This document shows, in pieces, positions 357 to 64,000 of a stretch of DNA of 64,000 nucleotides; within the stretch, counting starts at the first letter, position 1, and the number at the start of each line of letters is the position of its first letter. This DNA is from Rhina ancylostomus (lineage: Eukaryota). Both the position numbers and the translations under genes were made by a program. The stretch covers positions 11,309,337 through 11,373,336 of the forward strand of contig JARFYF010000068.1 in NCBI GenBank assembly GCA_030265395.1, read 5' to 3'. The notes below the pieces were generated by a model. That model made no database searches, was not told the DNA's origin, and worked only from the letters and a program-made list of their open reading frames with translations.

Positions 357-1941
357 AAGGAACAACCATTAATCTAGCAGACGGAAATTATATATTATTC
401 TATTCTTGTAGTAACCGGAGTTCTATAGAAACATAGAAAACTTACAGAACAATTCAGGCCCTNNNNNNNNNNNNNNNNNNNNNNNNNNNNNNNNNNNNNN
501 NNNNNNNNNNNNNNNNNNNNNNNNNNNNNNNNNNNNNNNNNNNNNNNNNNNNNNNNNNNNNNNNNNNNNNNNNNNNNNNNNNNNNNNNNNNNNNNNNNNN
601 NNNNNNNNNNNNNNNNNNNNNNNNNNNNNNNNNNNNNNNNNNNNNNNNNNNNNNNNNNNNNNNNNNNNNNNNNNNNNNNNNNNNNNNNNNNNNNNNNNNN
701 NNNNNNNNNNNNNNNNNNNNNNNNNNNNNNNNNNNNNNNNNNNNNNNNNNNNNNNNNNNNNNNNNNNNNNNNNNNNNNNNNNNNNNNNNNNNNNNNNNNN
801 NNNNNNNNNNNNNNNNNNNNNNNNNNNNNNNNNNNNNNNNNNNNNNNNNNNNNNNNNNNNNNNNNNNNNNNNNNNNNNNNNNNNNNNNNNNNNNNNNNNN
901 NNNNNNNNNNNNNNNNNNNNNNNNNNNNNNNNNNNNNNNNNNNNNNNNNNNNNNNNNNNNNNNNNNNNNNNNNNNNNNNNNNNNNNNNNNNNNNNNNNNN
1001 NNNNNNNNNNNNNNNNNNNNNNNNNNNNNNNNNNNNNNNNNNNNNNNNNNNNNNNNNNNNNNNNNNNNNNNNNNNNNNNNNNNNNNNNNNNNNNNNNNNN
1101 NNNNNNNNNNNNNNNNNNNNNNNNNNNNNNNNNNNNNNNNNNNNNNNNNNNNNNNNNNNNNNNNNNNNNNNNNNNNNNNNNNNNNNNNNNNNNNNNNNNN
1201 NNNNNNNNNNNNNNNNNNNNNNNNNNNNNNNNNNNNNNNNNNNNNNNNNNNNNNNNNNNNNNNNNNNNNNNNNNNNNNNNNNNNNNNNNNNNNNNNNNNN
1301 NNNNCAGCATGGAATCCATGTGCTGGACAACAAGGCATTAATGGAGCCAAATTGATGGCCAGAACTCAGAACCATGACAAAATCACGAAGAGTAAGGTCA
1401 TTTTGTTGAGCATGTCGGAAAACTCTCCAATCTATTTTGTTATTAAATCTTGGGAAATAATTAACAATGTGCCATGGCTTGTCAAACATCTGCGCCTCAT
1501 AGAATTGGGTCGTGCTTTTGTCTCTTGAAACTACTTTAACCCCATTTGGACCACGATCTGTATTCCTGTGGCATTAATTCCCTGACCATAAGACGTATTA
1601 TAGTTGCAAATATTCAGGAGAAAGCTCCGTGGAAATAACAGTAAGAGATACAGCATTTATCAATACACTAAAACTAGAAGGGAATTGATGTAATTGCATG
1701 ATGCATGGTAAATCTAATATTCTTCTTCTGTGTACAATTTGCAGATACTGGATTTTGTCCACAGAGTTCAGCAACTCTTTCTCAAATGCGGAACGCAGTG
1801 GCTATATGCTTTGGTGTTTGTGGACTTGCACAAACTCCTTTATTTATGCGGAATCTTAGAGAAATCTCGAGAGGAGCTAAATAATACGATCCAAAGTCCT
1901 CTTTTTTTCCTCATTTGTTGAAAAGTTGTATTTATGTTTAA
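357..1941 (+). pseudogene. GPR139/142-like GPCR pseudogene (gene 1)
   Basis: Exon-1 homologue at 357-425 has ATG changed to AAG and an in-frame TAG (AAG GAA CAA CCA TTA ATC TAG CAG ACG GAA ATT ATA TAT TAT TCT ATT CTT). A decayed exon-2 remnant (TM4 onward) at ~1380-1941 aligns by eye with the intact paralogues (ttaacaatgtgccatgg; acttgcacaaactcctttatttatgcgg). The middle is an N-gap plus a repeat. Confidence 0.85.
1305..1379 (+). mobile_element. 3' end of ~406-bp TGTCA...TGACA solo-LTR-like element (copy 1)
   Basis: cagcatggaatccatgtgctggacaacaaggcattaatggagccaaatt...agaaccatgaca is nearly identical to the ends of the copies at 6964-7402 and 47013-47302. It abuts the gene 1 exon-2 remnant. 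Confidence 0.85.
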
Positions 1942-3289
1942 GACTAAAGGAACAGTATCTAAACAAACAAAATGTACGGGATTCAGTACATGCGCAGACA
2001 TATTAATATGTAAAATATCATATCTTTTGCCGCTGTTGTCATTTCTAATATTTGTTTGGATTTTACTTTTTTTTGTTATTTTGAAATTATAATCAATAGA
2101 AAGCGATTCTTTTTCGGATCTGCTATAAATGCAATGGAACACGTGCATTTACTTTATTTTACTAATGTAAACATATCAATGGTGCAGAAAATGCTGACTG
2201 TACATGACGTGCTCCGATGTATTTGTGAAGACAGCACTACTTCCGGTTTATGATTGCTCATTGGGGCCAGATACAAAATTCGAATGCAATTGATGTGATA
2301 TGCAGAAAAGAGGGCGTGTGACAAAATTAAGGAAGATGTAATTATCTGGTCTGATAGGTACCGAGAGTTCTGGAAAATATAATTTATGCTGCTATCAATT
2401 GATAAATTGTCTGCAGTCTTGCAAGTCGCACTGAATCTCCCTGGAGGAGATCGGAAGCGAAGCAGCAGAAATGTGAAATGCTATCAAATGAGGTGGAACT
2501 GCAGCTGCAGAAAAATACTCCAATTAAAAGAATTGTGGAAACACTCAGCACGTCAGGCGATACAAATGTGAGAGGAAACAGAGCAGCTAATAGTGCTGTT
2601 TGATGACCTATCCTCGGACTTTGTCTATTCTGATGCAAGCATGACAATCTCGTTGTCGGCAATTGTGGAATTCAATGCCCTGAGGGATCAGCGCAGGAGT
2701 GTAGGTGGAATAGGCAACGAGATGTTCAGGATTTATCCTGCGCACTGAAGCACTGTTTTTTTAAAGCAGGAAAACGGTTCAGCTATTTTGCATTAGTGCA
2801 TATTTCCACTGCAGGAAAGACCACGTTTTCAACAACAATTATAGTGCAGTAAAATAGAAAAATATTTTAATTCCTGCTTATGCTTNNNNNNNNNNNNNNN
2901 NNNNNNNNNNNNNNNNNNNNNNNNNNNNNNNNNNNNNNNNNNNNNNNNNNNNNNNNNNNNNNNNNNNNNNNNNNNNNNNNNNNNNTGAAGATGAGTTCGG
3001 TCCGTTTGAATGGCGGAAATGAAATAAGTGCAGCTACAGGTGCAATACCTCGCGCGGTTGGATGGAGGAGGACCGATAAATATGAACGTTTCCAAGGGAT
3101 TAAAGAGTGAAGCATGGAACCTGAAAAGGGAGGACAGGAACAGGCTGATAGCTTCATCACTTCCTTTCAATGTGGGGCTAATGCTGTGAAGGATAAGCAA
3201 GTGAATCTAGGTTGTCTTCTGAAATGGGGGAATGCTGGTTAATGTTTAGATGAAAGAAATTGACAAGCACGTTTCTGAAACTGTCAGCA

Positions 3290-3960
3290 CTTTAGTAATC
3301 AAAGGCACCGTGATATAAAAATGAACTCATCTGGAAAGCCTTACTATGGGATATTTCGGCATCAGAACAAGTATGACGATGTTTATCAAACTGGCACAAT
3401 GGCATGAATAAGTTATGGGAACGTGGGAAGAGATGCAGTGAAGATAATAATTGGAAATTTGGCTTATAACCTATTATATGAGATGGAAACAGTGAAGCTG
3501 AAGGAAAACCAAGAGTTGGAAAGTGCACGCGTGAAAGCAATACGGGACTGGAGCTGTAGAAATGTAAGATTCACTGTGAGTACAGGAAGTAACATAAATA
3601 CATTCACTAAAGCATCAGATAAAGTTGTGATAAGTTTGATCATACACTGAGTCAGACAGATGTACAGGACAGACTCTCTACCTTTGGTCCACAACGCCCA
3701 TGCCGACCTTGTTATCCATTTACACTCTTCATAATTTGGCAGTATTAGTACAGCATCCCTCTTTACCTTGCTTACCCAAATGCCTGTTTAACTTTATATT
3801 AAACATTGTTACTGTATCGTATTCCACCACCTCTATTGTTAACAAGTTTCAGATATGGAACACTCTTGGTATTATCTAAAAATGGCAAACTCCTGTTTAA
3901 AACTTCCTTCCTCTCAACATCAACCAAGTCATCGTGTTTTTGATACCCATAGAATGCAAC
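3290..3960. mobile_element. Decayed CR1-like LINE fragments
   Basis: Degenerate text resembling CR1 3' regions, homologous to 21040-21700. No intact ORF. Confidence 0.4.
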
Positions 3961-4037
3961 ACAATTCTAACTATCTGCACCATCATGATTTTATATACAC
4001 ACACATGACTATCTGCTCTCATGACTTTATACACAAA

Positions 4038-4064
4038 CACACACACACACATACGCGCGCGCGC

Positions 4065-9164: not shown

Positions 9165-12100
9165 ATGGAAAATACTGATATCCTGCAGATTGAAAGTACT
9201 TACTATCTTATACTTGTCATAATCGGAGTTCCAGGTGAATCACACATCGAATGGCATTGCCCGCATGCATTTATGTGTTTCACTTGTTGACATTAATATA
9301 CCTCAGGTAAATAACTGAAAACGATTTTTCTCTCATGTTACTAATGCAAAAACGTTACCGAAATGGAAAAAAAGAATTAAACTGATGGTCTATCGTCAGT
9401 ATTGTTCCTAAACTGTGATGTTATGAGGTATCTATTGCGCTTTAGATTGAGCAATTCCCCCAGCGATATTTGCAGACTTCATTGGGCCAAAAGTATATTG
9501 TTATTTTATTCCATCGAGCAGAAATTGAAGTCCTCATTCCGCTCCTCCGAAATGAGAATCAAAGAGATAATGCCGAGTTTCATGCATTTTCTGTTTTGAT
9601 TCTATGCACCACTTTCTTCCCGTATTCGGCACACACACACAAAGAAACAGTTGCTACCCTGCAACTACTGTTCCTCAGTGCCAAAGACGATGGACAATTT
9701 CCGATATAAAATCCATTGATTAAACGGAACAAAAAAAAATCTGCAACAACATTTTTATGGATTCTCCCGATTTCACTCTGGATCTCTTGAGGAAAAGAAG
9801 CCGAATGTGCAGGCGAATCGGTGCAAAAGATATGGATGCTGAACTTTCCTTTTTACTGATAAGTTATCAGCAGATAGTACATGCATTGACAACATGATGC
9901 AATGAGTGGGATATTTTAATGACGATTAAGTTAAAATTCGGGCAATGGAACTGCAAACTCATCTGTAGATACTGACTGGAACCTACAGTTTGATGAACTG
10001 CGATTTATTGTTCATAATTGCTAATTTTATTCCAATTGGTTGAAAGAATGTTTCTCACCATTATTCGCTTTTAAAAAAAATGAGCATAAGCGTTTATTGC
10101 AAAACGAAAAACACGAAAAATATCGTACCGGAATATGGGAATCAACGGGACTTCAAAATCTCCAGAGCAGTGACATTTCCGGGAGATTTAATTTTATTTT
10201 TTATCGACATTTGGAAGAAAGACAATACCTGTTTCCTCGAAGAGCAGTAATTAAAATGTTGAAGATCCATTCCGAAACGAGTGACCGGGAAGCAGGGCAG
10301 AGGCGGAGTGAATGGCATTACTGAGATTCAGCTGTCTGACTTGAACCATTTCATGACATGTCTTCCAAGAAACTTGCAAGACTTCAGGAAATTCTAAGAT
10401 ACCAATCAGGATCACACCGAACCGAACCGTTGTCCATTTACCCAATATCGCCCAAATTTAGTATTAACGCGGTTTCTGATCTTATTAAGCGATGTCGCAA
10501 CATATTTCTGTTCAATCCACCACATTTATGACACCCATAACTCGAGAAATTTAATCCTGACACTATACGTTTACATATGCATGTCTGTTTGCGATTGTTG
10601 TAGATTATCAGGCAGAATTAAAAGCTGGTATTACAGTAAGTGTTTTCAAAAGGCCACCTGATTTTCCAATGGCAGAAATGCAAAGTCTTATCCCCTGTCT
10701 CCTGTTTCCTTTCTATGCGCTGGCTTCCCTTTTCACGATGGCCGATGAAGCCAGGTTTGTAAGACATTGTGAACGGCAAGTCTTCAAACAGGAGAATGAG
10801 AAAGCGTCCGTTATTACAGAGAATGGGGAAAAACACGAATCGCGGGATGTTTCGAGTAGGTTCGGGCCATTACACCATTGAAATTGTATGCCTGTTAACC
10901 CAAATCTTGCTGTCTGCTTGATCGAAGCAAAGGACAACATTCTGTTATTGACTGTATTCCAAGATCTTCAATATNNNNNNNNNNNNNNNNNNNNNNNNNN
11001 NNNNNNNNNNNNNNNNNNNNNNNNNNNNNNNNNNNNNNNNNNNNNNNNNNNNNNNNNNNNNNNNNNNNNNNNNNTCAATATTTTCCGCCCTTGTGTGTTG
11101 AAAGCTGAACTATAAGAGGAGATGGAGGTCCTGGATCAGATACTTTTAGTCTACCTTTCTGCTTATTGTTAAAATAACGTGCCGAAGAGAAAGTACGAGC
11201 ACAGTGTGCACCCGGCTCTCAGTTTGCCGGGATTATAGATATTGAACAGCAAACAGGTAAACTTCAAGGAGGACTGCAGAGTCTGTTGAGGAGAGTTAAT
11301 ATAATCAATGGTTTGTACTTCCCTTGTCAGTATATTTTATTTTAATTATTTGTCAGTAACTTACTTTTAATGAAAGAAATATCTTTGTGTAATGGTGAGA
11401 ATGTTTCATTTGCGTATATTGTCTCTAGCGATCAGAGATATTTAAAAGAAAACGGTGTTAAAAGTCGAAAACCATTGAAATGTCAAATCTTTTCGTGCTT
11501 TCCAGCAGGCTGCGAGTCAGAAGACACTGTGATCTAATCATCGTCGAGTATGTTAACGGGACTAGGAAACTCAGCTTGAATGGACGATCGTATCGCAGTT
11601 GAAGTGTAGAAATGGTGTATTTGACCTGTGATTCTGGTCACAATGCCCCTTTATAACAAACATTCACATTATTGAAGCTGAACAATACTTAGCAACTGCA
11701 GTGATGAAAATAAAATTAGCCGATATCAACTTCACAGATGGATATTTTTCCATTCACAAATTAAACAGCCTTTTCTAAAGCATTCACTAAGGGCAGACAA
11801 TTGGAATAATTTAGGAATGCTTTCGAAATCATTGTTTACTAATTCTAAGGTGCAGTAAAGGGAGCAACTATTTCTCGCGTTATTTCTCATTTTTAATTCA
11901 ATTCCTTTTCATAATTTGCAGCTAATTTAGAGGCAATCATCATCCTGTCCTCTGGAAGGTGTGGTGTCTCCAGATGGATCATCAAATATCTTATATCAAT
12001 GGCAGAAGGAGATCTTATAGTGTTGGTTTCAAACATAATGCTCCATGAGTTTAAAGAGGCGTTTTTTCAGCATTCATTCCTCAATTATACACCTGTTTTC

Positions 12101-12596
12101 AGTTTTCTTATTGTAATGATGTATGTTTCCCTTGACATCTCTGTCTGGCTAACTGTCGCTTTTACATTTGTCGATGTGTCGCTATTTCTTGTCAGTCATT
12201 ACGGACAAAGTATTGTACCACCAGAATGGCATCGAAAGTAATAGCATTTGTGTGTTTGTTATGCATCTTCGAAAATATTCCGGTCTATTTTGTATTTGAA
12301 CCTTGGGGAGTAATTAACAATGTTCTATGGTCCTGCGTTGTAAAGGCAATCTCCCAAACTGCACCATTTTGTTCTGTGTTCTTGTGGATGGACACCATCT
12401 TAACCCCGTTTGCTACATTTTTGCTCATCCTACTGCTCAATTCCTTGACTATAAATCGTTTTATACTGGCCAACATCGTCAGGACCAAGCTCCGAGGAAG
12501 TAACAGTGAGAGTTGCCAGACTGATCAAGAGACGGATCACAGAAGGAAATCGATCATTTTACTGGTACAATATCTAGTAAATTTATTGCCTTTTGG
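9165..12596 (+). pseudogene. GPR139/142-like GPCR pseudogene (gene 2); exon 1 9165-9234, exon 2 from 11922
   Basis: Exon 1 reads MENTDILQIESTYYLILVIIGVP|gtgaat. Acceptor tttgcag at 11921, then ANLEAIIILSSGRCGVSRWIIKYLISMAEGDL...VWLTVAFTF. There is a 1-nt frameshift at the DRF motif (tttgtcgat vs tttgatcgat, ~12171). The sequence continues in ORF 12226-12651 to RRKSIILLV and is interrupted by an LTR-like insertion at 12597. Confidence 0.92.
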
Positions 12597-19000: not shown

Positions 19001-19848
19001 GTGATTTTGTTAAGCATCTCTTAAAACATACTGATCTATTTTATATTTGAATCTCGAGAAATAATTAACAATGTTCCATGGACCTGTTACAGAAAGTCAA
19101 GCTTCTTCAGTTCACCGAACTCGTCGTGTTTTTGTGGTTTGCAAATGTCAACCCCAAAACAACATCTGATGTGACCCTGTTGCTTAATTCCGTGAAAATA
19201 AAACATACATTGGAAAACAAGGTCAGAATCAAACTCCGAGGAAATAACAGTGACAGATGCAAGAATAATCAAAAGACTGATGACAGAATGATTTTACTGG
19301 TTATACTATCTGCCAATTTTATAATCTTATTGTGGTAAATCTTCCGTGCTTCATCTATGTAGAGTTTATATATACCCAATTTCTGGAAACAGATTACAAT
19401 GTTTATTTTGTAGCGGATAGCTACGGATAAACGAGATACTCGTGTGCAGTCGGAGGTCGTTGAGCCAGAAGTCCTGAATCACCCCCTACCGGCGCTTATA
19501 TGCCGTTTGAAAGTTCCGCGCTATCTTCGCTTTGCTGACGTCACGCTGGTCATCTGGCCTTTGCCGCGCCCGGGCTTTCATTGTTATTAATGAAGACGTA
19601 GGGCCTGGCTCCATCTTGGGCCGGGAAGTTCCGTCAACGCGAGCCGCCGCGGGAGCCGGTTCGGAGCAGGTAGGTGCGTCGTTACAATTTCATAATTTCA
19701 GAAAAAAATATGGGTATATGCTGATGTATCTGCATATACTTCCACAAATATCTTCATTTGTGCGGTTTCAGAGTAGCTACAAAGAATATGGCTTGGCGTT
19801 CTTTTTTTTCTTATTTCACATTTGTTCAAATACTATATGCCTGTTTAG
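16001..19848 (+). pseudogene. GPR139/142-like GPCR pseudogene (gene 3); exon 1 16001-16067, decayed exon 2 ~18709-19848
   Basis: Exon 1 reads MKQLVILQTGSIYYSLLLIIVP|gtaatc. The exon-2 homologue has lost its AG acceptor and has many stops and indels, but keeps NVLAIFILSS, NKVRIKLRGNNSD and ILLVILSANFIILLW. It is split by a 278-bp LTR at 19409. Confidence 0.88.
19409..19686. mobile_element. GC-rich solo LTR (probably Gypsy-type), 4-bp TSD ATTT
   Basis: Ends are TGTAGCG...CGTTACA. ATTT occurs at 19405-19408 and 19687-19690. GPCR homology (gattacaatgtttattt|cataatttcagaaaaa..gggtatatgctg) is continuous once the element is removed. Confidence 0.85.
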
Positions 19849-25870: not shown

Positions 25871-26129
25871 CCCACCATCTGACCATATGTTTTTGCCAAG
25901 GGGTCATAATTGACCACATGATTGCAAATCAAATGCTGCCGTGAGACGCGTTGGAATATTTGTCACGCATCCACTTATGAATAATTGAACGGTTATGCTT
26001 GTTGATTCTGAGAATGAATAGACTTGTGTACATGTGCAGGGACTTCTGCAGCTACCCAACATGACGAAATAACGTTGGAAGATTCCAGCTGCGAAGCATC
26101 AACCGTTGAAAGAAACTGTGTAATCGAAT

Positions 26130-38069: not shown

Positions 38070-38241
38070 CACATGAGAGGAAGTAAAAAAAAATCAGCAT
38101 CATCGGTTTGATCATACTCTAATTGTCGTGCAGTGTTCATGTCACCTTAGGGACTTCTGGAAGATATAAAGATGACCTAATTTGAAAGCAAGAGATCAAC
38201 GAATCTGTCGAACTAACCCGCAACATCGCTATTCTCTGATT
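38070..38241 (+). promoter_or_regulatory. Putative promoter of gene 5
   Basis: GAGAGGAAGT (~38076), CTAATTG (~38119), CACCTTAGGGAC (~38143) and TATAAA at 38165, 77 bp before the ATG. Conserved at 63265-63444. Confidence 0.6.
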
Positions 38242-38311
38242 ATGGGAGAGCCAGTGATTCTACAGATCGAAAGTATTTACTATCCTATTCTTGCAATAAT
38301 TGGCATCCCTG
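38242..38311 (+). CDS. GPR139/142-like class A GPCR gene 5 (subtype B), exon 1
   Basis: MGEPVILQIESIYYPILAIIGIP+G with canonical donor gtaagt; phase 1. Confidence 0.92.
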
Positions 38312-48910: not shown

Positions 48911-51900
48911 GTAGAAAATTTTCCTCATGTCATTTTATATATCTAACATTACCGAGTCGAATTAGTTGGCTAAAACATCGTTCATGTATCTGCTCATTCT
49001 AAAACGGATTGATTTTACTTCTGCATAATTAGTTCCATCTGTTCTCTCAGTTTTATGCCAGTTATGTACATAGGTCAATCCGTTCCACAGGTTCAAGTGC
49101 TAAATCGGTGCAAGATTAATTTTGACCGTGGGAGACAGGATATTGTTAAGGTTTATTGGAGTAGATTGTTTGCGGCAAAGATTCCGCAGACAACTGTCAG
49201 CATTTTATCGTGAGGTATTGAGAAGTCAATGCCTGCATGTCCCTGAGAGAGTGAAAGGCAAGGCTTGCCGGAGCAGAGAACCCTGGATGACGAGGAAGAA
49301 TGAGGACCTGGCAAGGGAAAAAAGGAGGCGTGGTCATGTACAAGCAGCTGAACATAGAACATTGCAGCTCAACACAGTCCCTTCGGCCGGCCGCGTTGTG
49401 CCGACATTTTATACTGCTCTGAGATCTATCAAACCATTCTCTCCCACATCGTGGTCCGTTCCTTTATCATTCATGTGGCTATTTAAGAGTCCTTTAAATG
49501 ACCCTAATGTATCTGCCTCAACAAGCTCTTTCGGCAGTGCATTTCACACACCCACAACTCTCTGTGCAAAAAAACGTACGTCGTGGTATCGAATATATGG
49601 ACAGTTTGCGGAGCAGAAAACGTATTTTGTCCTCATCCCACTGAAAGTGAAAGATATGGAATATTTGACAAAGTTGCAAAGTTCTTGAAAATTACAGTTG
49701 GCTGCATCTCAACATATTGAATTAAGGGGCAGGGAAATGGAAAATCGGATCATTCTAGACACCATTGTTCATCTCCAAACCAGATAGCCAGCAACCCTTG
49801 CATAGGATTGCTGATAAGGTGTGCATGATTCAACCAAATAGAAGTTTTATTCAGAGAACGTCCGTTATGCGTGTGACCAAGGAAGCCAGAGATGATCGCT
49901 TTGGAACAGAATACATCGTTCGGAATTCTTATGGATAAATTCAAACTGTTAAACAGGACAGATATACAGAAAGGAAACCAAAACCCGTATGGAATTAAAG
50001 ACAAATGCTGTTACGGATACTCAGCAAGTCTGGACTCATTGGTTGGAAGAAAAACAGAGTTAACTGGTCAACTCCACAAATGTTTCTGAGAACAGAATGT
50101 AAATGTTGTTTAAGTTTCAGACTGGTGACAATGAACAAATGAAATATATGATAAGATGAAGAACGTTCTTTTTTTCCAGATGGCAAGACTTATTTTATTG
50201 TAGAGCAAAGTTCTGATCAAGGTGGATGCGACCGGTGAGGAATGGAATTTTCGCTGGAAGTCTCGCGAGATACATTGGATACGAAGCCATTAATTTCGGA
50301 AATGGGGTATCGATTCCTCGTTAATAACTTAAGGAAATATTTCACAGCAGTGATCTTCACCGCATCACATTGCTCTCTCTATCCCTTCCACCCCTCGCAG
50401 TTTTAAATGCATTTAATTTCCCTTTTTCAGCTGCTAATGATAGATTTGGAAGAGCCACAGTGGTAAGGTCATTCAAAGGACCCTCCGCTCTTCCTATCCG
50501 CGCTACCCATCATTCCTTTAATGCTAATACAATTATTGCAACAGAGTTAAAATCCAACAAGATCTCATTATAAAACCACATTAAAAGCAGTTTTAATACT
50601 AGTAAGTATCTGTGAGGTGTCCAGATAAACCAAAGGCTGGATAATTAGAACTCTATTAGGTCCTGATTTTGCAGCGGACTAAAATTATAAATGCAAAAGA
50701 ATGCATTAAAAGATGAACCGTCGTATTTTTATTCGAACATATTATTTCCATGAACTGTTAACTTCATAAAATATGTACATGTGTTTAAAATGCAGGTAAA
50801 TCCGAGCGTCAGCCTATGTCTTAGCCGTACTCTTAAATGACTTCCCTCTGAACCCTCAGGTCTGATGCAGGGCTCGATCCAAAGCGTGAAACGTCCCTTT
50901 ACCTGCTCAGTTGTTGCCGATCCGCTGCATTTCTCTGGCAAATTTCCTTTCGCTCCAATCCCAGCATCTGTCTTATCTGTTGTATGCATTTTCAAAAATC
51001 CTAGTTGTAGAATACCCGACAAGGAACGAATAATAGGTAGTCATTTCCCTAAATTTACCTGTGATTTAATATTGCAGCAGTCATACCTGTATTCAAATAA
51101 TTTCGGGTTTTGGAAAGGGAAATCTCACGTTGCCCGTGTTGAAAACTGTATAACGGCTGTCCTTCAGAAACCAAGTTAAACGTGTTACCAAAATATGGAG
51201 GAAACAGAATAACTTCCTGAGATTATTCCCATTATCCAAAATAGTTTATGAATTTCGCTGATAACGGTAGACACCCGAACAAATGTAGAGTGCTTTCTGT
51301 CGGCAAAACACAATAGGGTCCATCTAACAAAAATGGTATCAGACTCGATTTAAGGTTCGTCTCCACGGAACCCACGGAAGGTGAAGGTACTTTACAGCCC
51401 AGCAAGGATGGAGGTTGGCCCCAGCAGCATGGAATGTTCGAAAATAAAGCTTTTGCATCCATTGTTAGTGAGGCGCAGACAGTAGAATTTAAAGGCAGTC
51501 ACTGATCATCAACGATGTTCGTGTGCACCACTTTAGCCTGAAATGTGTTCGATAAGTGAGTCTTTTTGAATTTATACTTGCAAGAATGCAAGTTTCACGG
51601 GAGAGTACCTGAAAAAAAAACTTGTCCCACCAATCGCCTTAAAGTTCAACACATCCTGCAATTGTTGTGTACACTGGACGTGTGAAATTTACCTATGAAA
51701 TGGTAAAAATACTACGACATTTTTTTTATTGATCACAGTTGTAATCACCTCGAATCCCTGATGTATAGCTGTCAGGAGGACGATTTTGGAATCTGTGAAG
51801 ATGGTTATTAGTTTACAAGAATGTTTTAGTAAGACTATTACTGATGTGCTATGTTGCGAATGCTTGGCAAGAGAAGATACATGACAAAACATGTACCACC

Positions 51901-53189
51901 ATCTAACCATGTATTATTATCAAAGAGTCAGAATTGACCACAAGATTGCAATACAAATGCTGCCGCGAGACTCGTTAGAATATTTGTAATTCATACAGTC
52001 AGGAACAATTGAAAGGCTATGGTTGTTGCTTCTGGGAATGCACAGATTTGTTATTTGTGCCGCGACTCCAGCAGCTACCTAACATCAGGAGAGAACTTTG
52101 GAAGAGTTAAGCGGTTAAGCAGGAACTGTCGAAGTAAACTGTAAGTCGACCTCTCAGGTGCAGATCTTGCAACGGGAGTTAAAGAGAACTGGAAAATAGT
52201 CTACATGGCTGGTTGGAGAGGTATGGGGCAAATCTTGGAAATAATAGGTGAAACCAAACGGCGGGGTTGAGGGATAGATTGAAGTTAGTGAGGCTGGTTG
52301 GAGCAGAGGCTGGGAAATGAGAGCTGGAACCACGTTGGGAGAGCGTACTATGTTTTTTGGTCCAGGAGTGGTGGTTGGCTGGGACACAGCTGGCAAGTGA
52401 TAAGTGGTAAAACATGGGGAGTGTATGTTAGATAGATTGAGTGGTGGGGTGCAATCGTGGCAGAGGCTGGTAGGCGATACGTGGGGACGGATGGGGATTG
52501 GATAATGGACATATGGGGCCAGTAAATAGGGCGCACGGGAAGGCCGAACAAACGGAGAGAAGAACTGTCCAGGGAAATGTATCACATCTTTGTGTTGTAA
52601 GGTACCTAAACGTGGCATGAATGTTTGTACATTCGATTTGTTTTAGTCTATCCATAGCAATAGAAGACATATATGTAGGTGCATGGTGGGAAGGAGGGGT
52701 AAAATTGCATGCAACAGGAAGCTCGAATTGACCGTTGCACACCCAGCTGCAGGACTCTGCAAAACGGTTGCCCAGTCAATGTTTTCTTTCACCAGTTTAA
52801 GGTAGGCAGCATCTCCAACACAGAATGCAGTAGAATGCAGTTTGGAAAAAGCTGCAATTAAATATGTTCCTCACCTGGAAGGACTGCTTAGAATGCTTTT
52901 TATGTTCCTCATAAATAATATTGAATCACTCACAAACGATATATTGTCAATATTGGCATAGAGTTGACGATTCCATGTGAATGCAACTGCATACGTTGAC
53001 AATCCTAAAGGATAATGCTATATTTATTTGTTTCTTAGGGAGAGTTAGTAACATGTTTCTGACAAATTTTCAAGCCGAATCACACTCTCCGAAATTGTGA
53101 ATGTTTTTTCCCCCTTATATTACACATCGAGCTTCTGACTGATACTGATACGAAGCGGAAATAAAGTAATATACAGGTCAATACATGTC

Positions 53190-53475
53190 TCAACCAATGG
53201 AGAAAGGGCCCTTTCAGGACAAACCACAGTAATTGGGCCATTTTACATTTGTTGACGAATGAAATTGATGAAATAGCTGTTTACAACTTACCAGTTGAAC
53301 CGTGATCAAATGCATTTATTAAACATTGCCTAATTAATGTGATTGAATAATTCAAATCATCGTTTGTGCTGAATACACTTCGAGGTTGCCCTGAGATATA
53401 AGTAACAGCTAAATTTACAAATCAGAAGATCCGTGTAGCTGTTAGACGAACCAGAGTCGTAGATTCCCTCCTATT
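53190..53475 (+). promoter_or_regulatory. Putative promoter of gene 6
   Basis: caaccaatgg (53191), TGAACCGTGATCA (~53296), CCTAATTAATG (53329) and TATAAG at 53397, 79 bp before the ATG. Confidence 0.6.
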
Positions 53476-53545
53476 ATGAAAATGTCTGTTATCCTGCAAA
53501 CGGAAGCTATTTACTATCCTATTCTTGGAGCCATTGGGATTCCAG
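53476..53545 (+). CDS. GPR139/142-like class A GPCR gene 6 (subtype A), exon 1
   Basis: MKMSVILQTEAIYYPILGAIGIP+G, donor gtaaga. Confidence 0.9.
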
Positions 53546-56013
53546 GTAAGACAGTCATCGAACGGTTTTGCAGATATATGTTGACGTGTTTGATTCTCGA
53601 TGTGAACAGACAACAACAATGATATCTGGGGATAAACGTGTTTTAGGATCCCATCATAGTATTAACGCAAACACCTTACTGAAGTAAAAGTAGTCTGACT
53701 GCTCGTCATCAGTAATGCAAACGATTGTCAACAATGTGCTTGGGTCATTTGCGTACTGTATTGAGCTGTGAAACTGCTAATGTTTAAATATATAGAATAA
53801 GGGTAGATAATAATTTGCACTTTAGTTATGTCCACCGAGCAGAAATAAGCATCCCGTTCGGCTTCAAGACAACAGTCTGCCACAGGAATAGCGGATTGCA
53901 TGCTTCAACTATAGGATCTTCGTGAAAATGTTGCATTTCATGCATTTCAGCTTCGATGCCATGGAGTAGTTTCTGCCCAGCGTCACTGAACAGATGGAAA
54001 GTAAATGCACCGTATATTTCGCACGTTGTTGCTCAAGGTCGGTGTTTAATGCTAATTTCAAATTCGGAGTCATGGCAGAAACTGAACGGCTGCAAAAACA
54101 TAGTGATGGATTTTCTTCACTACTTCTTCAGGAGAAGATGCTGGTCGTGCAGAACCTTCCGTAGAGAATTGTATTCAATGTTGATCTTCAAATAGAATGA
54201 AGAAAGTAATTGCCATAGACAGAATTCCGTGACGATTCACAGATTTGATTCCTGAGTTGGCGGTTTGCCTGATGGGGAGACAGTAACTAAAGTGAGATCT
54301 ATTTTAGAGATGGAAAGATAAGCAATGTTATCGCTGAAAGAAATAATTTGCGAACAAACCGATCAGTAACAAAAAATGTTTCAATTACGTGAACAACTTT
54401 AGAAAAACTGGCCATCGAAAGAATGAGGAAGTTATTTCAGACTCAGTTGCGGAGAAATTTCTTCGTCCAGAGTTTGGTGAACCTTTGAAATGCTCGATTT
54501 CAGAGCACGATCAAAGCTCAATTAACTCTTTTATAACGCTTTCTGACAGGTTTCAGAGCACAATTAAGAAGTATGAGACACGAGGATAACGCGAAGAAAA
54601 TGTTACTGAGATTTCAGATCGCCAGGATCTTACTGAACGGAGGATATTTTTGTTACCTACTGTTATGCTCTGAAAAATTGTGTGCAAATTCTGTGTTCAG
54701 CTGTACTAAGTATGCACGCGTTCAACTACGATCGACTTTTTTTTTCCCTCAGCAGTCGTTTTATTTAATCACGTAAAAGGAGTTGGCAGTTAAGTCGTCT
54801 TGAACTCCTGTTTTACCATGAACATGAGACCAAACATGGTGCTCATCACCTCAGCGCTTATTCAGTAGATGTGGAATTAGCCTCTTTACCGATTTAATTA
54901 TGTTTTACATTTCAATGCTTTAATATTTTATTGAAACTTTAAATTTCGATTAAATTCGATCGACTTCAAGCTAACGTTAATGTTGTATACGGAAACATTT
55001 CCAGGAGAGATGTAGTAAGAGTTATTCCAAAGAATAATTAATGACCCAAAATGCAATTTTAATTCGTTGTCAGAAACTGTAGAAAATTCTTAGATTATAA
55101 AATATTTCAAAATTTGTTAATTCAAGCTGAACTTACCAAATATTGTATTTCAAAGCTTTACAAACACTACTGATAGAAATCAGATTTGTTTTATAATTCT
55201 GATAGGATTTCTTATCAAATAACTCTCCATAAACCGGTGAAATTGTAACGTAGGATTTATATGTCGCCTATACATATCCAGAAAAAAATCAAGGATAAAT
55301 ATCGCGACGGAATTCAAGGAAGGTTACTCACGTAACCTTAAATTTTCTCTGTGTTTTGAGTTACTTCTGTTGAATGTTTGTCTGTACGCAACCGAACCAC
55401 ACGGGAGATAGTTGAACAAATGTTTAATGCATTGTGTATGGACCAGCTGAGTAACCATCAATTTGTGGACTCGAACTGAGGGTACTCACCAGCCATATTA
55501 GCCATCTCCAGAAGTGAAAACAACAATACGTTACAAATCCTCTCATTGCATTCAAACCCGCAGAAGAGATAACAGAAGAAGAGCAGCATTTCCAATATGA
55601 AGTTTGGTTAAACAGTGGAGCACAGATGCGATGAATATTTCTTCATTTAATTAAATTACAACGCCCCTGAGATAAAATGAATAGAACTGTAAGCTTGGTT
55701 AATGTGATGGTGAGTAGCGAACTGTAGGTAAAATGAAGCACACATTCGCAAGATTGAATAAGAGCAACATATGGATCTGTCGAGATGCAAATACTTAATA
55801 TTTTTCCACAGTATTTTGTCTGACAAAACCGTACTGCGTGCAGGCGTAAAATACGAATGTCAGGGATGTTTTCGGAACCATTATTTTATATTTTTTAAGT
55901 TGCTTTAAAAGCCCTGAAGGAATAAAAATGGGGATAAAATTTTGACAAAGGAACGCCCTATTTTTTTCCTATTGAGCCTTGTTTCTAAAATAATTTGTTT
56001 TCGTTGTTTGCAG

Positions 56014-56879
56014 CTAATTTGGTGGCAATCGTCATCCTGTCCTCTGGAAAATGCGGTCTCTCCAGATGCATCATCAAATATCTAGTATCGATGGCAGTTG
56101 CTGACCTCATGGTTTTGATAATTAATGTAATGGTGAATGAACTGAAAGAGTCGTGTTTTCCGTATTCATTCCTGAACTACACGTCTATTTGCAGTCTCAT
56201 TGTTCTATTGATGTATATTTCTCTTGACTGCTCTGTCTGGTTAACTGTCGCTTTCACATTTGATCGATTTGTTGCGATTTCTTGCCAGTCGTTACGGGCA
56301 AAATATTGCACGCCTAAGATATCATCGAAGGTTATAGCAATGGTCTTCTTTTTAAGCATCTTGGAAAATATTCCAATTTACTTTATATTTGAACCTCGAG
56401 ATATAATTAACCAGATGCCATGGTCCTGTTACGTAAAAGAAAGCTTCTACACCTCACCCGCTTGGATCGTGTACTTATGGCTCGAAACAGCTTTAACCCC
56501 TTTTGCACCATATGTGTTGATTCTTCTGCTTAATTCCTTGACCATAAAGGATATTATATTGTCCAACAGAGTCAGGAGCAAATTACGAGGAAACAACAAA
56601 GAGAGTTTCCAGAATGATCAAGAGACTGACAACAGAAGGAAATCAATCATTTTGCTCATTGCAATATCTGGCAATTTTATTCTCTTATGGATGGTAAATC
56701 TCGTGTGCTATATCTGTGTGCAGTTCACTGACTCTCAGTTTTGGGACTCAGATGCCAACGATGCTTTCACCATTGCGGAGAAATGTGGGTATATGCTAAG
56801 GTGTTTGAGCACTTGTACAAACACTTTCATTTATGCAATATCTCAGAAAAACCAGAGAGGAAATGAAGAATATGATTAA
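56014..56879 (+). CDS. GPR139/142-like class A GPCR gene 6, exon 2 (311 aa spliced; 7TM intact, C-tail frameshifted; possibly an incipient pseudogene)
   Basis: Acceptor gtttgcag at 56013. Closely paralogous to gene 4 through NTFIYAISQKN. A 2-nt deletion (~56852) then gives QRGNEEYD*. The ancestral stop (KCCIFL*) is still visible at 56927-56929. Confidence 0.85.
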
Positions 56880-57244
56880 GCGTCTCATTTTTCCTACGTA
56901 ATTTATGCAAGTGCTGTATTTTTCTTTAGCATTTAAAGAACTGTATCGAAACTAAATGAACTAACTCATGTGAATTGATCGCAGAAAAATCCCTAAAAAT
57001 AACATATTGTGGCATCGAGTCCCTTTCTAACATTTCTCGGTATCTATCATTATTTTCAGTTATAATCAAGTAATAGTGAAGAGACGCGCATTATTTTCAG
57101 ATATGAAATAAATTAATTGAAACAAGTGCATTTGTTTCATTCAACTAACGTAAACACCACAATGTGAGAAAATGCTGACATCCACAGGATAGCATGCTTT
57201 TTTGAATGGAATAATATTCCGTAGAATATTTTACATTTGACATA

Positions 57245-60200
57245 GACTACTTCACTGGAGCAGGCCATTCGACCAGACTACTTGTGCCCACCATTAGTTC
57301 CAAACTAATCCACGTGGATTATATTACCTGCACATGATCCATATCCTTCCATTCACTGTATGTTTATATACTTGTCTAAATTACTCAAACGTTGTTATTA
57401 TAACTGTTTCCACCACTTCCTAAGAGGTCCAATTCCAGGCACTGATCACTGTATGCTTGAAAAAAATCCCCTAAATTTCTTTTAAACGACCCCCCCATGC
57501 CATATTAAATCTATTCACTCTGGTCTTTTCGATTTCCCTCCCGGAGGAAAAATCATTGACAATTTACCCTGTCTATGCGTCTCATAATGTTGCAAACATC
57601 TATGAAATCGCTCTTCAGCCTCTAATGCTCTAAAGAAAACAAACCATATTTGTCCATCCTCTCCTTTTAACTTATTTACTGTCGTCCAAGCAAAATCCTA
57701 GTGGATATATTCTGGCTCCTCTCGAAAGCCTCCGCATCTTCTTAAAAATACAAAGAGCAGAACCGCACACAACATTCCAAATGTGGCCTAAATAAAGTTC
57801 TGTACAGCTGCAGCATGACTTCCTGAATTCTACACTGAACGCACCGAAGGAATATTACAAATCGACTTTACTCCTTCTTTGCCGCCCTTTCTACTTGTTT
57901 TGCCAGTTTCATAAAGCTGTGGATTTTCTTCACAGCATCCCTCTGTATTTTGGTGCTGCACAGTGTCCTGCTATTTGCTGTGTGCCTCCATCGTGGATTT
58001 GTTCTTGCAAAGTGTAACAACACGCATTTGTCCGGATTGAACTCATATGTCATTTCTCTGACAAGATGTCCAACATAAATATTGTGTTGCATCGTTTTGA
58101 CATTATTCCTCAATATCCACAAAATCGCCATTTTTTTTGTCATCTGCAAATTACTCATCATCCAACCTACACATCCTCTCAAGGCATACATGTATATCAC
58201 CTGCAAAATAATTCCTGGTATTAATCAAACGAAATGCTAGATGAGCCCCGCAGATCAGGCAGTATCAATGGAGGGAAATGTACAGCGGACCTTTTGTGCC
58301 GAGACCCTTGATCAGCCCGAATGAATGGATGAATGGTCTCTGCCCGAAATATCTACTGTCTGACTTGCTCAGTTCCATAGATGAACATTCATAGATGCTG
58401 CTTGACCTGCCGTGTTCCTTCAGCATCTTCTGGATGATTTCAACATCTGCAGTGTTCCTTCTGTCCCAGCAATTATCCTTGGGAAACACCACTGGCAACA
58501 ACAGTTACAATAACGCCGTTGCGCCACTACCCCCCGCCTTCTGTGGACAATCCAATTTTGAATTCAATCCACTAAGTGATCAGGGATCCCGTCTGTGTTA
58601 ATCTTCTGGAAATGCATAACATGAAGTACATTGTCGAAAGCTTCAGTAATGTCCACAACAACCATTTCCGTACACTAATCAGTCATCTTCGCCGTCTCCA
58701 TACAAAACCCAATAAAGTTTGGAAGGTTTTAACTGCCTCGCAGAGACTCATGCTGACTATCACTGTTAGGTCTATGCTTTTCCAGATGCGAACAGATCAT
58801 AAGTCTGAGGTTGCCATGTGCTCTGCCAACCTTCCGACCAGTCTCCCAATGGGGTTCATTGTTAAAAGTCTTACAAAAGTCGCCTTCAATTCTGCCTTAA
58901 CCAATATTCCCAGCTCGCTCCTCAAAATCCACAACCAAATTAATCACGAGATTTCCTTCACACAAAACCATTTTGTCTATCCATCATCAGCAGCTCCTTT
59001 TCCAAATGCTCCTAAGACCTGTGGCACTGAATTTATTGCAGTGATTGTGGTTCTGATAATGTAAGGACCGCAGGTCTATAGTTACTTGACTGATCCCTGT
59101 TGCTATTCTTAAAGAAAGGATTCACTATCATTCGCTATCCTACAGTCTTTGTGATCTCAGCACTGACTACCAAAAATACAAAAATAACCATTAAAGCCTC
59201 TATTGCTTCCCATGACACGCTGCAGGAGATCTCATTCTCCACGATCAATCTTTTTGTTTTATCAAGCATAATGCACTCATTAAAACAGCTCCCCTTCCCT
59301 TATACTGATAGATTACATGCTACCTTGATTTCTCTCCCTGAAATCACCATTTTCCACGTCCTTATCCTTGGTCAATTCAGATGAGAATGAATCCTGGCTC
59401 ACATCCCGCGGCTACAAACATTGATTACTCCTTTGATCCCGAAGTGTCCCCAAACTTACCGTCGCTACATTCTTACTCCAGATATACTTAAATTATGTCT
59501 GTTTGTTCTCTTTATTCTTACCTGCCAAATGTATTTCATGGCCTTTTTTTGTCCTGCGGAATGTCTATCTTAACTTGTATCATTGTGTTATTCTTTATGA
59601 GATTCATTCAATTCCAATTGCTCACACCTGTTATATGCTTACTTCTTTTCCCCAATCATACGTTTGACATATTTTCTTATTCTTGGTTTCGTAATCATAC
59701 CAAGCTCCGCCTTGCATCATTATCGGACATTACTGAACGTAAGCTCTTCATACCACTCTTCCAAAAGGCCCCAGTTATTGATATTGTTTTCGCCGCAAGC
59801 GTATGCTTTGAAACTTCTTTAGCCAGGTTGCCGCTTATTGTATTAAATTAAGCTTTCCGAAATCATTGGACCAGAATCTGAGGACTAAACTTTACATTTG
59901 CTTAATTGTGGACTCTATTCTCACAGTGTCCCCTACAGATACCTAGACAATCACACAATCGACTCAGTTTTATTTCTTCAGATGAGGTCCAGTAGTGCCC
60001 CGTCTCTACAGATTAGCTCTTGGACGCACTTTTAAATAAAGTCCCATCAATGCAGGCTCCACACACGAAGGCAAACCCTGTCAATATTGGGAAGTATAAT
60101 GCCAACTGCCGTGATGCTGTTTTGACTCTATTTCCCTTACACCTTCCGGCTGGCCATTGGGACCTAGAGCATAACACCAGCAAAGTCATATCACTTCATT

Positions 60201-60330
60201 TATTCTTAATTTCTCCGTGTATGGCTGCATTCGACGATTCCGCCAGAGTATATTCTCTAACTGAACCTCTGATTTCCATATAACGAGAGATTTCCTGCAC
60301 ACGAGCGTTCCCAAAACGACGATTTTAGTT
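57245..60330 (-). mobile_element. Decayed CR1-like LINE tract
   Basis: ORF 57868-58206 (SNLQMTKK...YEFNPDKCVLLHFARTN..IHSFMKLAKQVERAAKK) resembles CR1 RT. Duplicate of 31740-35930. Confidence 0.7.
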
Positions 60331-63264
60331 CATAGGGTTGGGGTACAACCATCATTCACAATAAGCTTTCAGCAGGCGGCTGTACATGTTTGTGAATAAG
60401 AACTTGTTTGGGGTCTTAACGTTGAAGAATAAACGGGCAGACTGTGTTGGACACGTGGATGGGCATAATGAAAATAAACCACTGAGCCAAGGGACACTAT
60501 AAATATTCCAGGAAGCGGAGTGCACAATGCTATCACTGGAACAAGAGGTATAGAACTGGAAGCAGCAAAAATACAACAGTGTCAAGCAGAACAAAAAAAA
60601 ATACTCTGCGACAAGCAATGGCTAAAATTGTTGTTCTTCAATGAAGTCTAGTGTACATCTTTGAGACAGGGTACAGCAACCTTTCGGAAGGCAATGCGTC
60701 GAAAGACTGTGGAGGGCATTCAACCTGACAAGTTGACACCACTTACTCTCTGAGAGACAATAGTCTGAGAGTTAATAGTGAAGGAGAAATCCAGGTGAAA
60801 TCTTGATTACGTGACAAAGAACAGCTTCTAAAATGTTGCACCAAAGCGATATACACAAAGCGATCCATTTTGCACGTTCGATTGTCAGAACAGGGGACAG
60901 TACATATTGTTGAATGTGGGGATAGGCGTTGCATGACCTTATGAAAGCTTTTGTTTTGCTCTGGCCACCCTGAAGATAGATAAGATTGAAACCCTGAGCA
61001 TGTGATATGACAGATGCATGTTGGAATTGTTGAGAACAAAACATACATCGAAGAATTGCGGATGGAGTTCGGAATGTCTATTCATGCGTAACGCACAGCG
61101 ACCAAACCATTGATGGTTTGCATTTCCCTAACAGGGAAAGGGAAAATGATTCTGAGGGATGGAAATAGACAATGTGAGGAATATGAGGGAAAACGGACAG
61201 CTTTCGCCCGCCCGAAATGTTGACTCTTTCCCACAGATGTTGCTTGACCTACTGATTTGCTCCGGCCCTTTCTGCTGTTTTTTTGGGGTTTCCAGCATCT
61301 GGACTATAGTTTTTTTTTCCAGTTTTCCTTCTCCTACCGGACTTAAGGTAAGCTGTGCATAGGTTAAGCAACTGCGTTTTTCTTACAGTCAGGAGGAATG
61401 GCCAATTATAATTTAATTGCAACAACTACGTTTCAGAAATTTTCTGATTCAGTTATTCATAATCACGAAAGAAATGTGTCCAATTGACTTCACCGTCTAT
61501 GATTCTGGGATAACTTACCTTCCAACAGACTATAATTATGAATTTAGTTCATCGTGCTGTAAAGTCGAAATAACTCAAGTGCATGGAAAAGATGTCCAGG
61601 AGAAATGTTATACTAAAAATATGAGCAAACTTTCGGAAAATCTCTTAAAATTAGCGTATTCTTAAATCGACATGACATTTATTTTTGCAAAGAAGCAAAG
61701 AATAAAATGTTAATACTTCCGATTCAACCTCTAAAATCGTACGAGCCATTCTTTGTTGTGCATGGTTTTTAAGATAAGTAAAGTTGAAGTGATCAAATAT
61801 CTTCAGGGACCACAAGTTATACACTAAAGTTGATCCAAATGGAAGACGCTTCATGGCTTTCGTTTTCGCAGTGATAGTTAATGTTGATATAAAATGAAGT
61901 CAGCAGCAACTATCCAGAACCCTGATAGATATCTTTTGCAAATTATGCCGGCAGAGGATTTATTCTTATCAATACAAGGTCTACAACGAGTATCGTTGGA
62001 TTGCATATCATTGACCTCTGACCAATGCGAAAGCTTAAGATCGCTTCTATGCATCGACAAAAAAAGTCGAGAAAAGCACATAAAATATGAAATTAGGAAA
62101 ATAATCATGCCAGACAGCCCATCGAGACTGCTCCACCATTCAGGATGGCTTTTGCTACATTGCGTTTTGTCTCATATCTTCGTATGTGCCTTGATTTTTC
62201 AAAAAAATAGACTTCCCCATTAAATATCCAGAATGATTTAGCCTACATAACTCTCCAGAGTAGAGGTTCCCTGTCCTCTACGAGAAGAAACTACGAAGCA
62301 TGTCTGATTTATTTGACGGATCCTAATCTTGTAACAAAGTTTCCCAAATCCAGATTCGTCCAGATGTCGAAAATTCTCGACAACAAACTTGCTCTTCCAA
62401 CTGAAGTACTCATGTTTCAAAAAGATAGCCCCATTCTTATGAACGGTAAAGAATACAGACCTATATGTTTTGCCTCATGTGACAGGAGAATCCTCTCATC
62501 CCAATACTTAGCCTGATCGCCTTATTTAGTCTGACAACAGAAAACAACAACTGTTGACAAATATGAACTGCAGCACGGCTGGCTTTTTGCTCGGCAACAT
62601 ATCATATAGTAACTTCACAAGGATACGACCTATTCTAGACTCATGACACAATAAAAAGTTCGGCCAGACAGGGGAAAATCCTCATGTTATTTCAACACTT
62701 TAGATTTTTTTTTAAAAGTAATCACTCGCACCTGTAAATGGTGTCTGTACGCTGCGATGCAAAGCTGCGCATGTGCCTTCTGTACCGTTTCCTGCTTGTT
62801 ATGTTCAAAAACTTCTATTTGAAATGGCAAGGCGATACATCGTCTATGAATCTGTAGATTTTTTTGTTCTCAAATAGATTGTCTTACATTATATTTCCAT
62901 AAATCCTCCACTCTTAAGAACAACCATCAAACTTCATTTGTTGTTTGATTACCACACTCACGGCAAAACAAATGAACAATTCTTCTGCAACTGCATTGCA
63001 TCATCCTTCACTGGACAAGCCTTTACTTCTCACAAATAGATTAAAACAACGTATTAACGTGTTAAATTCTGTACATGCAAGGGAATGAAGATTCGTATTT
63101 TGCGGAACTGTCCAGTGGAATGCTATTTCAGGAACAATAGTTGCAAATTAAGTGAAACCTTGTAAATAAATGCATACTTAAAGTTACACAACATTCTGAC
63201 TTATGCCAAATTTATTAAGAAATCTATATGGAAAAGTACGGTTTGAAGGGAAGATAAAACACAC

Positions 63265-63444
63265 ATGAGAGGAAGTAAATAAAATTAAGCATCGTTGTTT
63301 TGATCAAACAATTCAAAAACTCCAATTATCGTGGAGTGTTCATGTCACCTTCGGGACTTCTGGCAGATATAAAGAGGACTTAATTTGAAAGCAAGAGATC
63401 TGCGCATCTGCCGAACTAACCCGAAGCAGACCTATTCATTGATT
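63265..63444 (+). promoter_or_regulatory. Putative promoter of gene 7
   Basis: GAGAGGAAGT, GTGTTCATGTCACCTTCGGGACTTCTGG and TATAAA at 63368, 77 bp before the ATG. Confidence 0.6.
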
Positions 63445-63505
63445 ATGGTACAGCCAGTGATTCTACAGATCGAAAGTATTTACTATCCGATTCTTGGCGT
63501 CCCTG
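63445..63505 (+). CDS. GPR139/142-like GPCR gene 7 (subtype B), exon 1; the rest lies beyond the window
   Basis: MVQPVILQIESIYYPILGVP+G, donor gtaagt. Paralogue of gene 5 exon 1 with a 9-nt in-frame deletion. Confidence 0.85.
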
Positions 63506-64000
63506 GTAAGTCCTTACTCAAAAGACGGAATAGATGTATTTTTTGTATGTTTTGTATGTTTAATTTCAAGACGTTATGAACTGGAATCAAATGGGAATGA
63601 AACGTTTTAAGTGTTTTTTATCAACTTGTTCAAGTAAATATTGTGTTGGCTACTGACATTGCTTCTCAATTGATGCCAGTTATATTACAATGTGGCGAGA
63701 ATATGTACCTCAGAAAATGCTTCAATAGCGTGTTGGAAACCACTCTGAACGTTCTATTTGATACCTCCCTTTAGATACATTTCCATTCAGTACAGAGCAA
63801 GAGGCATATTCCGTGGTCAAAAGATTGAATCGACCTTAACTGTTAAAGTCATAATAAGTGTACTGATTGTATTCTATTTCGACTGTACCCAAAAATTCAG
63901 CTGAATTATTTGGCAGTACCATGCACAAGCAAAGAGAACTAATGGCCACTGCGCAATCCAATGGTATCCTGGTTCCGACATCCTCCGTTAGATGCAAGAC

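Follow-up and report, generated by a model that had tools for sequence, protein, structure and literature searches.

A large GPR139-like receptor family in the genome of the ray Rhina ancylostomus as a candidate olfactory repertoire

The receptor array in the window

A stretch of 64,000 nucleotides from the ray Rhina ancylostomus (assembly GCA_030265395.1, contig JARFYF010000068.1, positions 11,309,337 to 11,373,336 of the forward strand; hereafter the window) carries seven co-oriented two-exon genes for class A G protein-coupled receptors (GPCRs). They belong to a family that occupies at least 734 places in this genome and that we regard, with moderate confidence, as a candidate olfactory receptor repertoire. 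The initial annotation had described seven paralogues with a common orientation, one gene structure, and states from intact to decayed, and this description holds at every coordinate: all seven exon-1 positions were verified on the + strand. The first exons (61-70 bp) end in ..IG.P/G-GT in phase 1 and the long second exons open with AG/xx-Asn; six of the seven first exons have an ATG start and a phase-1 GT donor after Gly-x-Pro. Two genes are intact (genes 4 and 5), one is probably intact (gene 6), and four are pseudogenes (genes 1, 2, 3, and 7).

Gene 4 (exon 1, 27451..27520, 70 bp, phase 1; exon 2, 30500..31419) and gene 5 (38242..38311 and 41764..42668) encode intact class A GPCRs of 329 and 324 amino acids, respectively. 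Gene 6 (53476..53545 and 56014..56879; 311 amino acids) encodes the complete set of seven helices. Beyond transmembrane helix (TM) 7, its assembled sequence is short by 2 bp, and because a near-identical contig from a public run, X1 (245 bp, one other letter differing), carries those 2 bp, the loss reflects either an error of the assembly or an allelic difference. Gene 4 shares 83% identity with gene 6, and gene 5 shares 59% with each of these two; all three match Pfam 7tm_1 (E 1e-19 to 5e-16). Two public DNA runs also span the gene 4 intron with no splice joint and both behave as DNA; run X1 may be the source of the assembly itself. The four pseudogenes, likewise on the + strand, have decayed in different ways. 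The exon 1 remnant of gene 1 (357..426) has AAG in place of ATG and has lost its donor, a run of 842 N (463-1304) covers the 5' part of its exon 2, and the 3' part of that exon (1364..1874) contains stops and frameshifts. Gene 2 (9165..9234 and 11922..12596) has a frameshift near 12170 and is cut in TM6 by a dispersed repeat, and gene 3 (16001..16067 and 18694..19427) is heavily decayed in exon 2. Exon 1 of gene 7 (63445..63505) has a 9-bp deletion, and its exon 2, which lies just beyond the end of the window, contains eight stops and is 88.5% identical to gene 5. Among the other open reading frames (ORFs) of at least 95 amino acids in the window, none of the 42 scanned (62 listed) has a Pfam match.

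The layout of the window is explained by two tandem duplications. In one, a unit of about 13 kb with gene 4 and the beginning of gene 5 (25872..38730, +) has a second copy, at 69-77% identity, that holds gene 6 and the beginning of gene 7 (51896..63982, +); in the other, positions 1-3880 correspond to 15644-21620. Since the 13-kb unit recurs and gene 7 exon 2 closely resembles gene 5, the array grew by tandem duplication followed by decay. A dispersed repeat resembling a short interspersed nuclear element is present at 6964-7400, 12597-13048, 14412-14616, 22471-22878, 35003-35409, and approximately 47000-47300; the copies that were aligned are 78-89% identical to one another, several have N cores, and one is the repeat that disrupts TM6 of gene 2. 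A short ORF at 24157-24441 (+) has no Pfam match and contains a PPFEE..YFQHFEK stretch, which we take to resemble gypsy-type gag.

Size and ancestry of the family

A genome search with gene 4 as the query returned 3497 first-look candidates, and all 129 that were scored matched at E <=1e-39. At least 35 loci fall within 0.9 Mb on contig C68 (32 scored loci and the three decayed genes of the window). Genome-wide, at least 734 places match the degenerate TM3 pattern W[LFI]TVxF[TS]xDR, as against none for a reversed-pattern control; the pattern recovers 72 of 84 fetched full-length members and is expected to overlook copies as decayed as genes 2 and 3. In a sample of 20 motif loci from the first 100 listed, 11 have open frames (five of them across an assembly gap), eight are broken, and one is unclear. 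We estimate 400-500 intact genes and probably more than 1000 loci. None of 20 copies on small contigs exceeds 88% identity to any other fetched locus; they are therefore not alleles of the fetched loci, which removes allelic inflation of the count for these 20 copies within that comparison. The large birth-and-death repertoire proposed from the window is thus far larger than the window alone indicated, with about half of the loci open, and a small conserved family is not what this genome holds; the same genome contains about three strong odorant receptor (OR) loci and three V1R loci.

The family is concentrated toward scaffold ends, which may differ from telomeres: 34 of 90 listed motif matches on nine long scaffolds lie less than 1 Mb from an end, compared with 3% of the length. 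Two scaffolds carry the same 34-bp promoter stretch close to their ends (C54:37.04 Mb and C2:97.16 Mb), which suggests a recent exchange between what would be subtelomeres. Outside this genome, 2040 of 2909 candidate public proteins pass E 1e-10, and all 110 named relatives among the top 120 come from sharks or rays, across 15 genera and at up to 76% identity. Members are therefore already catalogued in RefSeq and UniRef, where these shark and ray models are mostly auto-named "probable G-protein coupled receptor 139", yet they are undescribed as a family in the literature reached. Other automatic names of members are sex peptide, FMRFamide, neuromedin U, vasopressin V2, galanin, capa, C5a, and GPER receptor-like, and labels of this kind could lead gene inventories astray.

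Among solved structures, the best match of a profile built from 41 members is GPR139 (66.5 bits), followed by peptide receptors (48.6 bits), with chemokine receptors at 39. The family, GPR139, and GPR142 share a phase 1 intron at the same position of TM1 (Pro/x-Asn). The array genes are nevertheless only 24-30% identical to GPR139, and the genome has its own single orthologues of GPR139 (on C112, 99% identical to stingray GPR139) and of GPR142 (on C50). In an IQ-TREE phylogeny of 53 proteins, with class A relatives limited to vertebrate sequences outside the TAARs, the expanded family is monophyletic and separate from GPR139/142 (support 100/100); its common ancestry with GPR139/142 also receives 100/100, as judged against an outgroup of three receptors with a long-branch warning at the root. 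Outward from the family, the tree places clade A (sister, 96/94), then clade B, and then GPR139/142. Clade A (C53:27.24 Mb) is a single-copy GPR139-like gene of sharks, coelacanth, sturgeon, teleosts, amphibians, turtles, and squamates, with no mammal or bird among the 120 matches listed. Clade B (C2:82.06-82.07 Mb) is a single-copy orphan that occurs, among the matches listed, only in rays, sharks, and Callorhinchus. The databases name clade A proteins GPR139, except for two models named as TMEM183A isoforms, which suggests linkage of the two genes. R6.51 and D7.36 are kept in clade A, and clade B keeps H5.43, R6.51, and D7.36 and has T at 6.48.

The sequences accordingly point to derivation from a GPR139-like ancestor and to membership in a broad GPR139/142-like subfamily. 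The initial assignment to GPR139/142-like receptors thus stands as to kinship, although these genes are not orthologues of either receptor and their nearest relatives are the two single-copy orphan paralogues of clades A and B. Its proposal of a lineage-specific expansion needs a wider lineage: shark and ray members are intermixed in the tree, with subfamilies common to both, and part of the expansion therefore predates the shark-ray split, so that it is elasmobranch-wide rather than specific to this species.

Several other affiliations were considered and rejected. One-to-one orthology to GPR139 or GPR142 fails because the true orthologues lie on C112 and C50 and the family forms a separate clade. 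Vasopressin V2 was the top single-sequence match of gene 5 exon 2, but GPR139 moves ahead of it once the profile or a full-length member serves as the query. Membership among the ORs is contradicted by the lack of a 7tm_4 match and of an N-terminal glycosylation site, and membership among V1R/ORA receptors by the lack of a PF03402 match. As for TAARs, which themselves lie outside the tree, position 3.32 lacks the conserved Asp and is the most variable site (3.65 bits).

Protein anatomy and ligand pocket

The members are class A GPCRs in every hallmark, with a 7tm_1 match, seven helices and helix 8, DR(Y/F), W6.48, and N7.49xxxY7.53. Among 113 members, C3.25 is conserved in 110, D3.49 in 111, R3.50 in 112, W6.48 in 112, N7.49 in 113, and Y7.53 in 113. 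GPR139 and GPR142 are without the otherwise near-universal Cys3.25, whereas clades A and B and the expanded family retain it. The structure model of a 76%-identical relative (predicted local distance difference test score 78) has seven helices, a hairpin in extracellular loop 2 (ECL2), and helix 8, and its fold matches peptide-type class A receptors most closely, such as TRHR, NTSR1, and GALR2. There is no N-terminal glycosylation sequon, and the first sequon is at N78. The ratio of nonsynonymous to synonymous substitution rates (dN/dS) ranges from 0.16 to 0.55 among 18 independent paralogue pairs and is 0.32 when these are pooled; for gene 4 against gene 6 it is 0.26. The scaffold is under purifying selection.

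By contrast with this constraint on the scaffold, the pocket sites are hypervariable, in keeping with the diversified ligand-detection repertoire proposed initially: their entropy is 2.22 bits versus 1.38 bits at other TM sites (p=1.4e-4) and their dN is 0.193 versus 0.115, with the same sites invariant in nine GPR139 and seven GPR142 sequences. The site at which GPR139 binds Trp and Phe includes H187(5.43), N271(7.39), and R244(6.51) (PMC5430874). The combination F3.33, H5.43, W6.48, R6.51, and N7.39 is not that of the family: among 113 members, 3.33 is F or Y in 78, 5.43 is D or E in 80 and H in 14, 6.48 is W in 112, 6.51 is variable, and 7.39 is Y or F in 92 and N in four. As three residues of the Trp/Phe site (5.43, 6.51, and 7.39) are replaced in most members, amino-acid ligands cannot be extrapolated from GPR139/142, and this part of the initial annotation is not upheld. 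An acidic residue is also common at 3.37 (D in 98 of 113), and because of the acids at 3.37 and 5.43 the ligands may be cationic, for example amines, basic amino acids, or short peptides. The analogy behind this proposal is the amine-binding Asp in TM5 of teleost TAARs.

Promoters, interpretation, and comparison with known systems

Promoters were examined in 41 genes with a located exon 1 and 400 bp of upstream sequence. A TATA-like box is predicted 60-95 bp 5' of the ATG in most of these genes. In a first test, an EBF-like palindrome lies 10-32 bp 5' of the TATA box in 16 of 41 promoters (shuffled sequences 2.0, maximum 5), and a TAATT(A/G)-type site occurs within 60 bp in 22 of 41 (shuffled 3.3, maximum 8). 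A second test used the published consensus for the O/E (EBF) site (table in PMC3247239) and 3000 TATA-anchored genomic control windows; O/E-like sites were found in 20 of 41 promoters versus 9.6% of controls, homeodomain sites in 21 of 41 versus 6.5%, and both in 11 of 41 versus 0.5%. These elements occur across clades between which the upstream DNA shows hardly more alignment than shuffled sequence does. Within the window, the predicted elements, all on the + strand, are as follows: for gene 4 (27303..27377), homeodomain sites at -148 and -121, an O/E-like site at 27350 (2 mismatches), and a TATA-like box at 27371; for gene 5 (38120..38169), TAATTG at 38120, an O/E-like site at 38144 (2 mismatches), and a TATA box at 38163; for gene 6 (53331..53401), a homeodomain site at 53331 and an O/E-like site at 53387 (1 mismatch) that adjoins a TATA-like box; and for gene 7 (63323..63372), homeodomain, O/E-like, and TATA elements. 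An upstream satellite with a 26-bp unit occurs in none of 43 genes inspected, where the tandem repeats amount to four of 2-3 copies with units of 20-23 bp. Genome-wide, a homeodomain-O/E-TATA pattern has 31 matches (30 distinct) versus 22 for a control; ten of 12 fetched non-training matches have a family exon 1 84-115 bp downstream. The composite site was not found upstream of the V1R, GPR142, and clade-A loci of this genome, and exon 1 of GPR139 was not found within 30 kb. A composite-like site of homeodomain and O/E elements also lies about 4 kb upstream of an OR-like locus on C1, and may be due to chance.

Enrichment of O/E, homeodomain, and TATA elements is described as the signature of mouse OR promoters (PMC3247239), O/E-like sites are reported for all 39 V1R promoters examined (PMC3247230), and OR enhancers are marked by juxtaposed Lhx2/Ebf sites (PMC5608512). 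The predicted motifs would thus lend independent support to a chemosensory role, beside the large clustered birth-and-death organization and the variable pocket. On this combination, we consider it fairly probable that the family is an unrecognized olfactory receptor repertoire, approximately 10 times the known shark repertoire. Homeodomain (Lhx2-type) and EBF (O/E) factors would select each intact gene for use in a subset of olfactory sensory neurons, with expression there either sparse or limited to one receptor per cell. The variable pockets would detect different water-borne molecules, and ligand binding may signal through Go or Gq to PLC and then TRPC2; this route is suggested because catshark olfactory neurons are essentially all Go+/TRPC2+ (PMC10116579). 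The same source gives v2r1 labeling of 5.9 cells per mm and 0.45-2.8 for the other probes tested, and from these probe densities most catshark olfactory neurons may be left without a receptor assignment. A bolder extension, to which we grant slightly less than an even chance, is that sharks and rays smell mainly with this GPR139-like family, which would have arisen independently, replaced the ORs, captured Lhx2/EBF-driven gene choice, and come to fill most of the neurons unlabeled by V2R, TAAR, and ORA probes.

A number of observations weigh against an olfactory repertoire. Each promoter element is missing in about half of the genes, both occur in only 11 of 41, and the MGYPA clade has an O/E site in only one of eight; the elements are predictions that allow 1-2 mismatches, and their p-values overstate independence because the promoters are paralogous. 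The 12 fetched matches to the genome-wide pattern were chosen near clusters or on small contigs from the 30 distinct ones, of which one is a training gene and 17 others were not fetched. The spacing from homeodomain to O/E site is 2 bp here versus 1 bp in the mouse Sfaktiria probe, a pattern with the 1-bp mouse-type spacing is at background genome-wide (21 matches vs 25 for the control, none fetched), and in the window genes the two sites are mostly at least 14 bp apart. EBF and LIM-homeodomain factors act in other neurons too, and EBF1 acts in B cells. As to the pocket, its numbering relies on alignment to a 25%-identical receptor, and its dN/dS is 0.44, which is below 1 and therefore leaves positive selection unsupported. 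Finally, V2Rs are described as dominant in the shark nose, in work whose probes covered known families only (PMC10116579), and the top 50 genes of catshark brain plus olfactory epithelium contain no GPCR, though no V2R either (PMC11979771).

The alternative that survives best, although unlikely, is a chemosensory repertoire outside the nose, in skin or oral cells, taste buds, gut enteroendocrine cells, or trigeminal or lateral-line-associated neurons. The size of the family, its birth-and-death pattern, and its pocket variability would fit any repertoire for external ligands; GPR142 is a nutrient sensor, and EBF and homeodomain factors act in many kinds of neurons. However, the combination of O/E, homeodomain, and TATA elements is the one documented for OR promoters, and the octamer motif, which is typical of POU2F3-dependent taste and tuft cells, shows no enrichment (four of 41 promoters vs eight of 40 introns). 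Similarly unlikely is an immune repertoire of leukocyte chemoattractant or pattern receptors (FPR-like) or of EBF1-driven receptors in B cells. Clustered birth-and-death families with variable pockets typify immune receptors as well, the EBF-like site is enriched, and there is a slight excess of C/EBP-like sites (five of 41 promoters vs none of 40 introns and 2.2 in shuffled sequence). Against an immune role, the EBF site occurs together with a homeodomain site, ETS/PU.1 (2 of 41), RUNX (4), IRF (2), and NFkB (1) motifs are at background levels, and the profile favors GPR139 and then peptide receptors over chemokine receptors; as defined by consensus sequences, none of the ETS/PU.1, RUNX, IRF, NFkB, OCT, and CRE motifs is enriched in the 41 promoters.

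Endogenous signaling, in which neuropeptide or metabolite receptors of brain, gonad, or sperm were expanded for dosage or cell-identity coding, is distinctly improbable. The peptide-receptor fold is in its favor, as is an ancestor within the GPR139/142 group, for which kinship with MIP, proctolin, and FMRFamide receptors is documented (PMC12208981), whereas the receptors of this group that have endogenous ligands are single-copy with invariant pockets, and a family with approximately 40% pseudogenes and hypervariable pockets is at odds with a fixed set of ligands. That the expansion is a largely neutral consequence of subtelomeric duplication, with most copies silent or redundant, is very improbable and is largely refuted by purifying selection (dN/dS 0.16-0.55 in each of the 18 pairs); subfamilies common to sharks and rays, as well as splice sites and promoter elements kept across deep clades, also speak against it, despite the strong enrichment at scaffold ends and the broken state of eight of 20 sampled loci and four of seven window genes.

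The presence of at least 734 loci of one GPCR family in one ray genome alters the elasmobranch GPCR census, even without a function. Cartilaginous fishes are credited with the smallest olfactory receptor repertoire among vertebrates (mean 43.8 complete genes, range 20-62) despite many olfactory neurons (PMC10869828), and a "relative paucity" of GPCRs is stated for them in the whale shark paper (PMC8455134); published surveys would have missed the family because only known families were sought. If expression proves to be olfactory, the puzzle of the shark nose would be resolved, an independently evolved chemoreceptor family would be added, and there would be a natural test of the way in which receptor choice driven by Lhx2/EBF takes on a new family. 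The expansion is not described in the literature searched, from which subscription journals were mostly absent. Neither GPR139 nor GPR142 is named in the main text of the catshark sensory-genomics paper, and the two names were not found in the supplements of the little skate paper (three files, one scanned file excluded) or of the whale shark paper (12 of 24 files). What appears to be new, as judged from sequence, is an expanded ligand-detection GPCR repertoire of independent origin, together with its predicted O/E, homeodomain, and TATA promoter signature.

Compared with known systems, the family shares with GPR139 and GPR142, class A orphans activated by L-Trp and L-Phe, the best profile match, the phase-1 TM1 intron, the motifs YY..L..G.P-xN and S.W.TV..T.DR, W6.48, and a mostly aromatic residue at 3.33. 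It differs from them in its low identity, in hundreds of copies versus one, in the loss of H187, R244, N271, H113, and E108, and in the presence of Cys3.25 and the ECL2 Cys. Non-mammalian orphans are listed beside GPR139/142 as "Orphan 139-like" (PMC5207463) and GPR210A/B (PMC6504862); these related genes are single-copy. In the text available, neither source describes an expansion and PMC6504862 has no mention of sharks or cartilaginous fishes. With OR, TAAR, and V1R/ORA receptors, the family has in common a large clustered birth-and-death repertoire, a short N-terminus, an almost single-exon coding region, a variable pocket, and, as predicted here, promoters with O/E, homeodomain, and TATA elements. 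Unlike ORs and V1Rs, it has neither a 7tm_4 nor a V1R Pfam match, and the OR and V1R loci of the same genome are distinct and few. It is further set apart from OR, TAAR, and V1R receptors by one conserved coding intron, by an N-terminus without a sequon, and by what appears to be an independent origin on a GPR139-like branch.

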